Shown: positions 10,728 to 13,583 of the stretch, piece after piece
Position numbering within the stretch: the first letter of the stretch is position 1
Layout of the letters: every line of letters starts with the position of its first letter
Source of the DNA: Escherichia coli
GTDB lineage: Bacteria; Pseudomonadota; Gammaproteobacteria; Enterobacterales; Enterobacteriaceae
DNA length: 64,000 nucleotides
Strand: one strand, 5' to 3'
Assembly (NCBI RefSeq): GCF_024298765.1
Contig: NZ_CP101210.1
The notes under the pieces: model-generated
What the model was told of the DNA's origin: nothing
What the model saw: the letters and a program-made list of their open reading frames with translations, nothing else
Databases searched by the model: none
Position numbers and translations under genes: made by a program

Positions 10728-11738
10728 ATGAAGGCTGCAGTTGTTACGAAGGATCATCATGTTGACGTTACGGATAAAACACTGCGCTCACTGAAACATG
10801 GCGAAGCCCTGCTGAAAATGGAGTGTTGTGGTGTATGTCATACCGATCTTCATGTTAAGAATGGCGATTTTGGTGACAAAACCGGCGTAATTCTGGGCCA
10901 TGAAGGCATCGGTGTGGTGGCAGAAGTTGGCCCAGGTGTCACCTCATTAAAACCAGGCGATCGTGCCAGCGTGGCGTGGTTTTACGAAGGATGCGGTCAT
11001 TGCGAATACTGTAACAGTGGTAACGAAACGCTCTGCCGTTCAGTTAAAAATGCCGGATACAGCGTTGATGGCGGGATGGCGGAAGAGTGCATCGTGGTCG
11101 CCGATTACGCGGTAAAAGTGCCAGATGGCCTGGACTCGGCGGCGGCCAGCAGCATTACCTGTGCGGGGGTCACCACCTATAAAGCGGTGAAACTGTCAAA
11201 AATTCGTCCCGGTCAGTGGATTGCTATCTACGGTCTTGGCGGTCTGGGTAACCTCGCCCTGCAATACGCGAAGAATGTCTTTAACGCCAAAGTGATCGCC
11301 ATTGATGTCAATGATGAGCAGTTAAAACTGGCAACCGAAATGGGCGCTGATTTAGCGATTAACTCACGCACTGAAGACGCCGCCAAAATTGTGCAAGAAA
11401 AAACCGGTGGCGCTCACGCCGCGGTGGTGACAGCGGTAGCTAAAGCTGCGTTTAACTCGGCGGTTGATGCTGTACGAGCAGGCGGTCGTGTTGTGGCTGT
11501 CGGTCTGCCGCCGGAGTCTATGAGCCTGGACATCCCACGCCTTGTGCTGGATGGTATTGAAGTGGTCGGTTCGCTGGTCGGCACGCGCCAGGATCTAACC
11601 GAAGCCTTCCAGTTTGCCGCCGAAGGCAAAGTGGTGCCGAAAGTCGCCCTGCGTCCGTTAGCGGACATCAACACCATCTTTACCGAGATGGAAGAAGGCA
11701 AAATCCGTGGCCGTATGGTGATTGATTTCCGCCGCTAA
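10728..11738 (+). CDS. adhP: Zn-dependent alcohol dehydrogenase (propanol-preferring)
   Basis: 336-aa product from the ATG at 10728 preceded by RBS aaaggagg; medium-chain dehydrogenase motifs (GHEGIG, Cys-rich Zn site). Confidence 0.92.
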
Positions 11739-11883
11739 GAGGCCTTTGCTGCGACTGCCATGTTTGGGTCGCAGCATCACACACTCTCCAACATGAAATG
11801 GCTAAATGGATTATTGTTGCGTAGGAAGGAACAATAATGATAGTGTTCCTGGTGAAGGAACGCTACTGAGAGTAAAGACACTA

Positions 11884-12168
11884 ATGAAAATGGCCAATCA
11901 TCCCCGCCCGGGGGACATTATTCAGGAATCACTGGACGAACTTAATGTCAGCCTGCGCGAGTTTGCCAGAGCAATGGAAATTGCGCCCTCAACGGCAAGC
12001 CGATTGCTGACCGGAAAAGCAGCTTTGACGCCAGAAATGGCGATTAAACTTTCCGTGGTGATCGGCAGTTCGCCGCAAATGTGGCTGAATCTGCAAAACG
12101 CCTGGAGCCTGGCAGAGGCTGAAAAAACGGTGGATGTGTCGCGACTGCGCCGTCTGGTTACGCAATAA
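11884..12168 (+). CDS. yddM: HTH (XRE/HigA-like) DNA-binding protein YddM
   Basis: 94-aa product from the ATG at 11884; helix-turn-helix region ([22 protein letters not shown]). Confidence 0.8.
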
Positions 12169-12175
12169 TAAATAT

Positions 12176-12199
12176 CCTCCGGCATAGCCGGAGGTTTTT
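12176..12199 (+). terminator. Rho-independent terminator after yddM
   Basis: Hairpin cctccgg-cata-gccggagg followed by ttttt. Confidence 0.7.
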
Positions 12200-12202
12200 C
12201 AA

Positions 12203-12875
12203 ATGCGCCTATAAGGCTCTCTTACCAGCCGCGCCCTAACAGGCGCACACGATCTGACATTTGCATCCAACTTCGTTACTTACGGCCCGTAAACGGGCTG
12301 CCCGGATAGGGAATCGATAACTGCTCTCCCATTTTATCCTCTTCAAGCTGGTGCTTTATGTAATCCTGTATCTTCGCCGTGTTCTTACCCACCGTATCGA
12401 CGTAGTACCCTCTGCACCAGAACTCTCTGTTCCTGTATTTGAATTTCAAATCACCAAACTGCTCGTAAAGCATCAGACTGCTTTTCCCTTTCAGATATCC
12501 CATAAAGCCGGATACACTCATTTTGGGCGGGATCTCCACAAGCATATGGATATGATCTGCACAGCATTCAGCTTCAAGAATCCGTACGCTTTTCCACTCA
12601 CACAGCTTTCTCAAAATACTGCCTATTGCTCTACGCTTCTCTCTGTAGAACACTTGTCTTCGGTATTTTGGCGCAAAAACTATGTGATATTTACAGTTCC
12701 ATCGGGTGTGCGCTAAGCTCTTTTCGTTCCCCATTGGGACCCCCTTTTGATTTCTTGTTTGACACTTGCAGTTGCCAGACCGCAAGGTGTTTTAACAAAT
12801 CAAAAGGGGTTTTAATAACTGGCTCAAAGCTGAAAGCTTTCCGGAACCCCCAGCCTAGCTGGGGGTTTTCTGTGC
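12203..12875 (-). mobile_element. IS200 insertion sequence (IS200/IS605 family); boundaries approximate
   Basis: Contains the Y1 (HUH) transposase gene, an RBS-sequestering stem upstream of tnpA, and the left-end hairpin (aaacccccagctaggctgggggtt on the minus strand, + coordinates 12843..12870); ends not mapped to the base. Confidence 0.8.
12276..12734 (-). CDS. tnpA: IS200 transposase TnpA (Y1 HUH transposase)
   Basis: 152-aa product starting MGNEKSLAHTRWNCKYHIVFAPKYRR with the HIHMLVEIPP (HuH) motif; recognised as essentially the Salmonella/E. coli IS200 TnpA. Confidence 0.9.
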   Translation of the reverse strand: MGNEKSLAHTRWNCKYHIVFAPKYRRQVFYREKRRAIGSILRKLCEWKSVRILEAECCADHIHMLVEIPPKMSVSGFMGYLKGKSSLMLYEQFGDLKFKYRNREFWCRGYYVDTVGKNTAKIQDYIKHQLEEDKMGEQLSIPYPGSPFTGRK

Positions 12876-12878
12876 ACA

Positions 12879-12909
12879 AAAAAATGGCGCTTCTTAAAGC
12901 GCCATTTTC
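12879..12909 (-). terminator. Rho-independent terminator of the fdnGHI operon
   Basis: On the minus strand, hairpin aaaatggcgctttaagaagcgccatttt followed by a T-run, 20 bp past the fdnI stop. Confidence 0.7.
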
Positions 12910-12929
12910 AGCTTAAAGTTCAAAAGAGA

Positions 12930-13583
12930 TTATATCCCTTCTTCACTCTCTTTTTTCGCTTCTGCCTTCTCGATTTCACGATACCAGCGCGGATGGTGTT
13001 TCTTCGCCCAGCGACGGCTCACCTTCCCTTCGATCATCCCTTTAATCGATCCTTTCACCCAGAATGCCATATACATATGGATCAGGATGGCGTGGATCAG
13101 GATGATACCCGCAGCCGCATGGATCAGCAGGCTATAACGGACAACCTGTATCGGGAAGTACTGCGCAAAGTACGGACGCCAGATAATCACCCCGGTCACC
13201 AGCAGCACGAAAATCATGCTCATGATCGACCAGAACATCATCTTTTGCCCGGCGTTGTACTTACCGACATCCGCCACTTTATGCTCATTGCCTTTCAATA
13301 CTTCGACAATGTTCAACAGCCACGGAATATCTTTCTTATCCGGGATGTTGTGATGCACAAAACGCACAAACATAAACATCAGTGCGACGAAAATCGCAAT
13401 GCCGAAGAACGGGTGCAAAATGCGTCCCATCTGCGGCGTACCGAAGGTTTGCGTCAGCCATTGCAGCGTCGGGAAGAAGAACGAAATCCCGGACAGCGCC
13501 ACCAGGAAGAAGCAAATCACCACGGTCCAGTGACAGGCGCGATCAATAAATTTGGTGCGCACAATCATTTTCGACTTACTCAT
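12930..13583 (-). CDS. fdnI: Formate dehydrogenase-N cytochrome b556 gamma subunit
   Basis: 217-aa product from the ATG at 13583 ([19 protein letters not shown]...); 4-TM heme-binding subunit. Confidence 0.9.

Follow-up and report, generated by a model that had tools for sequence, protein, structure and literature searches.

An intact IS200C copy inserted behind the fdnI terminator T-tract in Escherichia coli

The spacer between the convergent genes yddM and fdnI on contig NZ_CP101210.1 of Escherichia coli (assembly GCF_024298765.1) harbors an insertion sequence (IS) of the IS200 type. This raises the question of where the element begins and ends, what it inserted into, and what became of the transcription terminators on either side. 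We addressed it in a window of 64,000 nucleotides, i.e., the whole stretch of DNA analyzed, whose coordinates are used throughout. The original prediction, made from the sequence alone, had placed an IS200 copy at 12203..12875 between two host terminators, those of yddM and of the fdnGHI operon.

Element borders and the natural empty site

The element is a complete IS200 copy (RefSeq name IS200C) that belongs to the IS200 group of the IS200/IS605 family. The element and its immediate neighbors are as follows.

11884..12168, plus strand: yddM, coding for a HigA-family antitoxin-like HTH protein; intact (Pfam HTH_3, RefSeq at the identical locus)
12167..12877, minus strand: IS200C, 711 bp, left end at 12877 and right end at 12167
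12176..12194, terminator-like on both strands in the scan: IS200 right-end hairpin, CCTCCGGC-TAT-GCCGGAGG; -15.5 kcal/mol, z = -4.7
12878..12909, minus strand: fdnI intrinsic terminator, the target of the insertion, GAAAATGGCGC-TTTAAGAA-GCGCCATTTT plus a T-tract; intact, -17.7 kcal/mol

The empty site was rebuilt in silico by deleting 12167..12877 and joining 11917-12166 to 12878-13127, and the product was used for searches. It matched E. coli RM14723 at 500/500 bases in a single piece, and multiple alignment with the empty allele placed the gap at exactly 12167-12877. The single-piece match therefore fixes both ends of IS200C and shows that target-site duplication is absent, removal of exactly 711 bp restoring the natural empty allele of RM14723. 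Because of the A/T ambiguity at the ends, the borders 12168..12878 or 12169..12879 (a shift of up to +2 nt) are equally valid, and the difference between 711 bp here and the published 707-710 bp fits an uncertainty of 1-2 nt at the T/A-rich ends.

The window was first aligned with copies from an E. coli plasmid, a Salmonella plasmid and Y. pestis pMT (IS1541), the plasmid-borne IS200 being the Salmonella comparison copy. The similarity of the plasmid copies to the window was unbroken across 12190 to 12890. Seven independent full-length copies from E. coli, Salmonella and Y. pestis have in common a block that extends from GTGCACAG... to ...CCTCCGGCTATGCCGGAGGATATTTATT; read in the orientation of tnpA, it starts with GTGCACAGAAAACCCCC... 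and finishes with ...CCTCCGGCTATGCCGGAGGATATTTATT. Three more chromosomal copies and three right-end fragments yielded the same element ends. The seven full copies and the empty site thus agree on 12167..12877, and the borders first proposed fell ~38 nt short: 2 nt were missing at the left and, at the right, 36 nt that include the right-end hairpin.

With both subterminal hairpins and an intact tnpA on the minus strand, the copy is a full IS200 and not a fragment, as had been proposed. Terminal inverted repeats are absent; the left- and right-end subterminal hairpins differ in sequence and lie 10 nt and 9 nt, respectively, from the element ends. No second gene was found in the 711-bp element: each remaining ORF on the list overlaps either tnpA or its 5'UTR, and tnpA is the sole gene in the RefSeq annotation. 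The copy thus combines the traits of the IS200 group of the IS200/IS605 family, namely a Y1 HUH TnpA without tnpB, distinct subterminal hairpins, insertion 3' of the target and no duplication.

A megablast search of 5426 complete E. coli genomes returned dozens that were 100% identical over 12150-12950 (801 nt), and RefSeq reports, at the identical locus between yddM and fdnI, an 'IS200/IS605-like element IS200C family transposase'. The ORF and Rfam matches together with these annotated loci establish that IS200C is real, complete and already annotated. The locus is ordinary, and new mechanism or biology is unnecessary to explain the presence of IS200C. The best explanation overall, with a probability of about 0.93, is that an intact, repressed IS200C inserted immediately 3' of the fdnI terminator's T-tract without target duplication. 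This copy is probably competent for transposition yet tightly repressed.

The transposase and the left end

The features of the left part of the element are listed below.

12276..12734, minus strand: tnpA, Y1 HUH transposase, 152 aa plus stop, intact
12690-12695 and 12714-12719, plus strand: candidate art200 promoter (putative assignment), -35 TTTACA and weak -10 TAAGCT
12726..~12815, plus strand: predicted art200 (STnc490) antisense sRNA gene, ~90 nt, whose 5' end faces tnpA codon 3
12739-12746, minus strand: tnpA Shine-Dalgarno sequence AAGGGGGT, paired within the 5'UTR stem
12741..12809, minus strand: tnpA 5'UTR stem-loop, whose 3' arm holds the Shine-Dalgarno sequence
12845..12867, minus strand: left-end perfect palindrome AACCCCCAGC-TAG-GCTGGGGGTT, 10-bp stem, -18.7 kcal/mol

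TnpA matched the Pfam family Y1_Tnp ('Transposase IS200 like') with 130.7 bits for a cut-off of 23 (E = 3.8e-38), as well as the PDB entries 2ec2, 2a6m (IS608 TnpA) and 2xm3 (ISDra2 TnpA), and the Y1 transposases of known structure from Sulfolobus, IS608 and ISDra2 are its homologs (E = 4e-23 to 1e-14). Its description as a canonical Y1 transposase was thus correct. The HUH motif (H61-I62-H63) and the catalytic tyrosine (Y125), both read from the translation, align with those of the IS608 and ISDra2 TnpA proteins, and Q129 is presumed to be the third metal ligand. The protein is identical to that of other E. coli copies (152/152 residues) and shares 145/152 residues with the Salmonella copy and 143/152 with IS1541.

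The left-end palindrome, whose exact sequence occurs in the whole window only at 12845..12867, is presumably the hairpin bound by TnpA in single-stranded DNA. Folding confirmed a terminator-like hairpin at 12845-12867, the original coordinates being 12843..12870. In the published element, the palindrome is a bidirectional terminator (nts 12-34; PMC4513863), the tnpA start lies at ~nt 40 and the 5'UTR stem-loop spans nts 69-138 (Ellis et al. 2015, PMC4513863), while the art200 RNA has its 5' ends at nt 153/154 and a length of 90 nt (PMC4513863). These coordinates were transferred to the window with a 1-nt offset. The minimum free energy fold of 12715-12839 on the minus strand (-42.2 kcal/mol, z = -3.6) pairs CCCCUUUUGAUUU with AAAUCAAAAGGGG, and the anticipated stem occluding the ribosome-binding site was recovered at 12741-12809, where AAGGGGGT is paired.

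Over its first 230 nt, the element matches the Salmonella IS200 copy at 229/230 positions, which means that the art200 gene is conserved together with its promoter region. This agrees with the proposal that the 5'UTR region encodes an antisense sRNA; the RNA is predicted, and would be expressed from IS200C in this strain as well. A promoter consensus scan of 11700-13100 returned zero promoters, a result that speaks neither for nor against the weak tnpA and art200 ones described in the literature and fits the published remark that the art200 -10 is almost unrecognizable (PMC4513863).

The Rfam model STnc490 (RF01405) matched 12744-12867 on the minus strand with 146 bits for a gathering score of 56. 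The match covers the left-end hairpin and the 5'UTR stem-loop, and its positions agree with PMC4513863. The RF01405 consensus is the tnpA-sense strand, while the STnc490/art200 RNA as published lies on the antisense strand at an offset; what the match marks is therefore the IS200 left end, not the sRNA. Rfam matches to Ysr202, STnc320, TarB and SdsR near the junctions scored far below their gathering scores and were set aside as generic terminator hairpins.

The closest known relative, IS200 of Salmonella enterica, has a single 152-aa tnpA and is 97% identical in DNA overall, the window copy showing only a few point differences. Its left-end palindrome/terminator, the stem-loop masking the Shine-Dalgarno sequence, the art200 region and the right-end hairpin are all present in the window copy. 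By identity with Salmonella IS200, two serial terminators, that of fdnI and the left-end palindrome, would block read-through into tnpA, the 5'UTR stem-loop would hide the Shine-Dalgarno sequence, and the antisense art200 RNA would pair with the tnpA 5' end.

Alleles of the fdnI-yddM spacer

K-12 had been suggested as a source of the empty site. IS200 is absent there as expected, but the 406-bp fdnI-yddM spacer of MG1655 consists of two tandem 178-bp REP/BIME units, with the terminator hairpin repeated at the end of each. K-12 is thus unusable as an empty site, because two REP-containing units occupy its spacer.

The spacer is polymorphic in E. coli, with 0, 1 or 2 tandem 178-bp units, two of them in K-12 (MG1655 1551999-1552399). 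In an even draw of 40 from 5414 matching records, the short (empty) allele was found in 15/40 records, an insert of ~178 bp in 12/40 and one of ~356 bp in 9/40; IS200 was present in 2/40 and other spacer alleles in 2/40. The yddM/IS200 junction, searched with a 200-nt query (100 nt of yddM and 100 nt of the IS right end) at a coverage of at least 80%, occurs in 308/5426 complete E. coli genomes. With this many carriers and at least one other IS200 variant at the same terminator, the element is not the strain-level marker that it had been taken for. A count of 1951 occupied genomes obtained with an 801-nt query (coverage of at least 80%) was discarded, since a lone IS200C copy covers 84% of that query.

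Two occupied genomes, MSB1_7A and strain 405, were aligned to window positions 11617-13427. In MSB1_7A, the fdnI terminator is followed by an IS200 variant with 30/711 differences (4%) and a different TnpA accession, and 8 T precede its left end. Strain 405 carries IS200C at the fdnI terminator, with an additional A where the yddM stop meets the right end. In both, the yddM flanks carry five differences from the window. The most economical reading of these sequences would be more than one insertion into the fdnI terminator; IS-to-IS gene conversion or precise excision could also be the source of the patterns in MSB1_7A, strain 405 and RM14723.

It is doubtful that a single insertion is ancestral to all 308 occupied genomes and hence a clean lineage marker. 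The dozens of genomes that are 100% identical across the whole 801-nt region argue for a single event, as does the very rare transposition of IS200 (PMC4513863). A single event fits poorly, however, with the divergent element of MSB1_7A, its 8 T rather than 7 and its differing yddM flank, with the extra A at the right-end junction and the differing flank of strain 405, and with RM14723, whose flanks are identical to the window yet whose site is empty.

Upstream of yddM, a 29-bp segment at 11825-11853 (GAAGGAACAATAATGATAGTGTTCCTGGT), which includes a short inverted repeat, is absent from MSB1_7A; the same segment is present in the window, strain 405 and RM14723. Elsewhere, many E. coli plasmids and some chromosomes bear no more than IS200 fragments, either pieces of the right end, 138-178 bp long, or halves from the left end, which are frequently cut by other IS elements (e.g., in pCE8-2, pO157 and E. 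coli H8). At least 80% of the element was present in only 171/1206 plasmid records with a match.

The insertion target and the fate of the terminators

The T-tract of the fdnI terminator comprises 7 T at 12878-12884, and the left end of IS200 begins right after the last T. The insertion thus lies exactly behind the terminator T-tract, a target-site feature that the original prediction had missed. A GC-rich hairpin and a T-run were also found immediately 5' of the left end in 7/7 full copies first examined. For a broader survey, one genome per species was scanned with a 29-nt left-end motif as an exact pattern, which gave at least 120 loci in Serratia, Brenneria, Kluyvera, Citrobacter, Yersinia, Pectobacterium, Vibrio and other genera. 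Among the matches listed, 116 left-end flanks of IS200-group elements from Enterobacterales and Vibrio were unique and non-tandem; ~70 of them come from a single Y. pestis genome. The nucleotides 5' of the left end at these 116 sites, among the matches listed, were as follows.

Position -1: T at 116/116
Position -2: T at 115/116
Position -3: T 68, A 28, G 12, C 8 (variable)
Position -4: T at 106
Position -5: T at 115
Position -6: T at 98

The left-flank consensus of the 116 sites among the matches listed is TTT(T)NTT, and the window site reads TTTTTTT. A perfect-stem hairpin detector scored 82/116 sites and missed imperfect hairpins; it was replaced by a comparison of fold energies with T-tract-matched controls. 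The 38 nt upstream folded at -10 kcal/mol or below in 97% of the 116 sites listed (median -17.0), versus only 14% of 1269 TTTTNTT control sites from the same DNA (median -4.3; Mann-Whitney p = 1e-60). The window site is typical, its 38-nt upstream fold reaching -17.0 kcal/mol.

The right end of the element itself, a hairpin followed by ATATTTATT, fits the TTTNTT pattern. Head-to-tail tandem copies of IS1541 were seen in Y. pestis NCTC5923 (e.g., loci L046 2660-3398 and L048 12604-13342, and also L045 and L092), in which the left end adjoins the right-end hairpin and ATATTTATT of the previous copy, as if this were a target. Among the matches listed, two Y. pestis tandem copies had their left end directly against another copy's right end. 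On the minus strand, GAAAA lies 5' of both IS200 hairpins (12868-12872 and 12195-12199), the contexts being CAGAAAA before CCCCC at the left end and TTGAAAAA before CCTCC at the right end. This A-rich motif occupies the place at the hairpin feet where IS608 has its guide tetranucleotides, which are summarized in PMC6006769. By analogy, GAAAA, whose composition complements that of the T-rich cleavage sites, may be a candidate guide sequence for a putative guide pairing in IS200.

Rho-independent-terminator-like stem-loops were reportedly noticed by Odaert et al. in 1998 at 8/14 IS1541 insertion sites. Terminator-like sequences are also enriched just upstream of IS200/IS605 copies (preprint 10.1101/2025.07.22.666184), and the target rule is therefore known in outline. 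The near-universality of the hairpin (97-100% of the 116 sites listed), the TTTNTT rule and the mimicry by the right end may not have been stated at such resolution before. A tentative and, in our estimate, rather improbable generalization is that elements of the IS200 group are structure-guided 'terminator seekers', which would insert with nucleotide precision after the TTTNTT of a terminator hairpin on the template for the lagging strand. The right end, with its hairpin and ATATTTATT, may then mimic the target, and the GAAAA stretches may act as guide. If true, terminator seeking would explain the tandem copies and the repeated hits on the fdnI terminator, as well as the harmlessness and long persistence of IS200.

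An improbable rival to targeting by the transposase is survivorship, in which insertion occurs at any T-rich site and only harmless copies behind terminators persist. Insertions into coding regions do occur (PMC4513863), IS200 having first been found in hisD and IS1541 occurring in inv, and selection against gene disruption is certain. The near-universal hairpin could partly reflect the survival of harmless insertions rather than a preference of the transposase. However, survival alone accounts poorly for the nucleotide-precise junction, with TT right before GTGC in 115/116 sites listed and a few nt past the hairpin foot. It also leaves the contrast between 97% of the insertion sites listed and 14% of the T-tract-matched controls unexplained. 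Many other neutral T-rich sites are available in intergenic regions, and the target used by tandem copies is another copy's right-end hairpin plus TTTATT.

Insertion of IS200C immediately 3' of the fdnI T-tract would have proceeded, without duplication, by single-strand 'peel and paste' transposition, which in the IS200/IS605 family passes through a circular single-stranded intermediate. IS200C and fdnGHI share one orientation. GC skew of the plus strand is mostly negative (-0.10 to +0.02 per 8 kb), weak and noisy near the terminus; the minus strand therefore has leading-strand composition and hence corresponds to the lagging-strand template. This suggests that the IS top strand and the terminator hairpin and T-tract lie on the template for the lagging strand, the skew being weak and the origin and terminus located outside the window. 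The IS200/IS605 family prefers the lagging-strand template (PMC5027513), and the GC skew at the window is consistent with that preference; the IS200C insertion may have targeted the lagging strand.

Relatives of the element share parts of this target choice. IS1541 of Y. pestis and Y. pseudotuberculosis (87% DNA identity) has the same end hairpins and the same hairpin-plus-T-tract target, but differs by a far higher copy number (at least about 70 left ends in one Y. pestis genome) and by tandem copies. IS608 of Helicobacter pylori and ISDra2 of Deinococcus, whose TnpA proteins are homologous to that of the window (E = 4e-19 and 2e-16), likewise combine subterminal hairpins with a lack of inverted repeats and of duplication, and they insert 3' of a short sequence directly adjoining the left end. 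In contrast to the IS200 group, which lacks tnpB and whose sites are T-tracts behind hairpins, they carry tnpB and recognize TTAC or TTGAT, and a target hairpin is not reported as needed. Group IIC introns also insert just downstream of intrinsic-terminator stem-loops (PMC1702495); they are unrelated retroelements with an RNA-based mechanism, and the convergence concerns target choice only.

In the empty allele, the yddM stop directly adjoins AAAAAAATGGCGCTTCTTAAAGCGCCATTTTCAGC, a hairpin between the convergent genes yddM and fdnI. Before the insertion, this single bidirectional hairpin was common to both genes. After the insertion the fdnGHI terminator is retained and the yddM and fdnI coding sequences are unchanged; the yddM TAA stop (12166-12168) spans the right-end junction of IS200 and is preserved. 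The expectation that the operons would be undisturbed thus held for the coding sequences, but yddM has been separated from the shared bidirectional hairpin.

On the top (minus) strand of the element, ATATTTATT and the right-end cleavage site come after the right-end hairpin; on the plus strand, the hairpin runs into TTTTT at 12195-12199. It therefore resembles an intrinsic terminator for yddM, which was the source of its earlier assignment. The same hairpin is present in 10/10 full or partial IS200/IS1541 copies at unrelated loci, and junction alignment showed that it is not in the empty allele. Thus, the 12176-12194 hairpin belongs to IS200, not to the host yddM locus. With regard to the two intact terminators between which the element had been placed, that of fdnI is indeed intact, but that of yddM is the right-end hairpin of IS200. 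A layout with IS200 at 12203..12875 only and 12176-12194 as the own terminator of yddM, for which the terminator-like score of the plus-strand hairpin and TTTTT directly after the yddM stop can be invoked, is refuted, with hardly any probability left to it, by the copy alignments, as this hairpin with an identical flank up to ...ATATTTATT ends every IS200/IS1541 copy examined, other genera included, and plasmid-copy similarity runs through the proposed border, and by the empty allele devoid of it. In the IS200C insertion at 12167..12877, yddM, cut off from the shared terminator, now meets the right-end hairpin and T5 of IS200, where its transcripts may end.

For the annotation of the window, the borders of the element are corrected, and the apparent terminator of yddM turns out to be supplied by the IS. 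Caution is warranted in the use of this insertion as a strain marker, given 308 genomes with the junction, at least two IS alleles at the site, and possible precise excision. By-products of mild interest are limited to two, namely the hairpin-plus-TTTNTT rule for targets, which is very clean, and the fdnI terminator's repeated use. The locus nevertheless provides a clean example, with a natural empty site behind it, of insertion by the IS200 group precisely behind an intrinsic terminator, a position that keeps IS200 transcriptionally insulated and nearly neutral.
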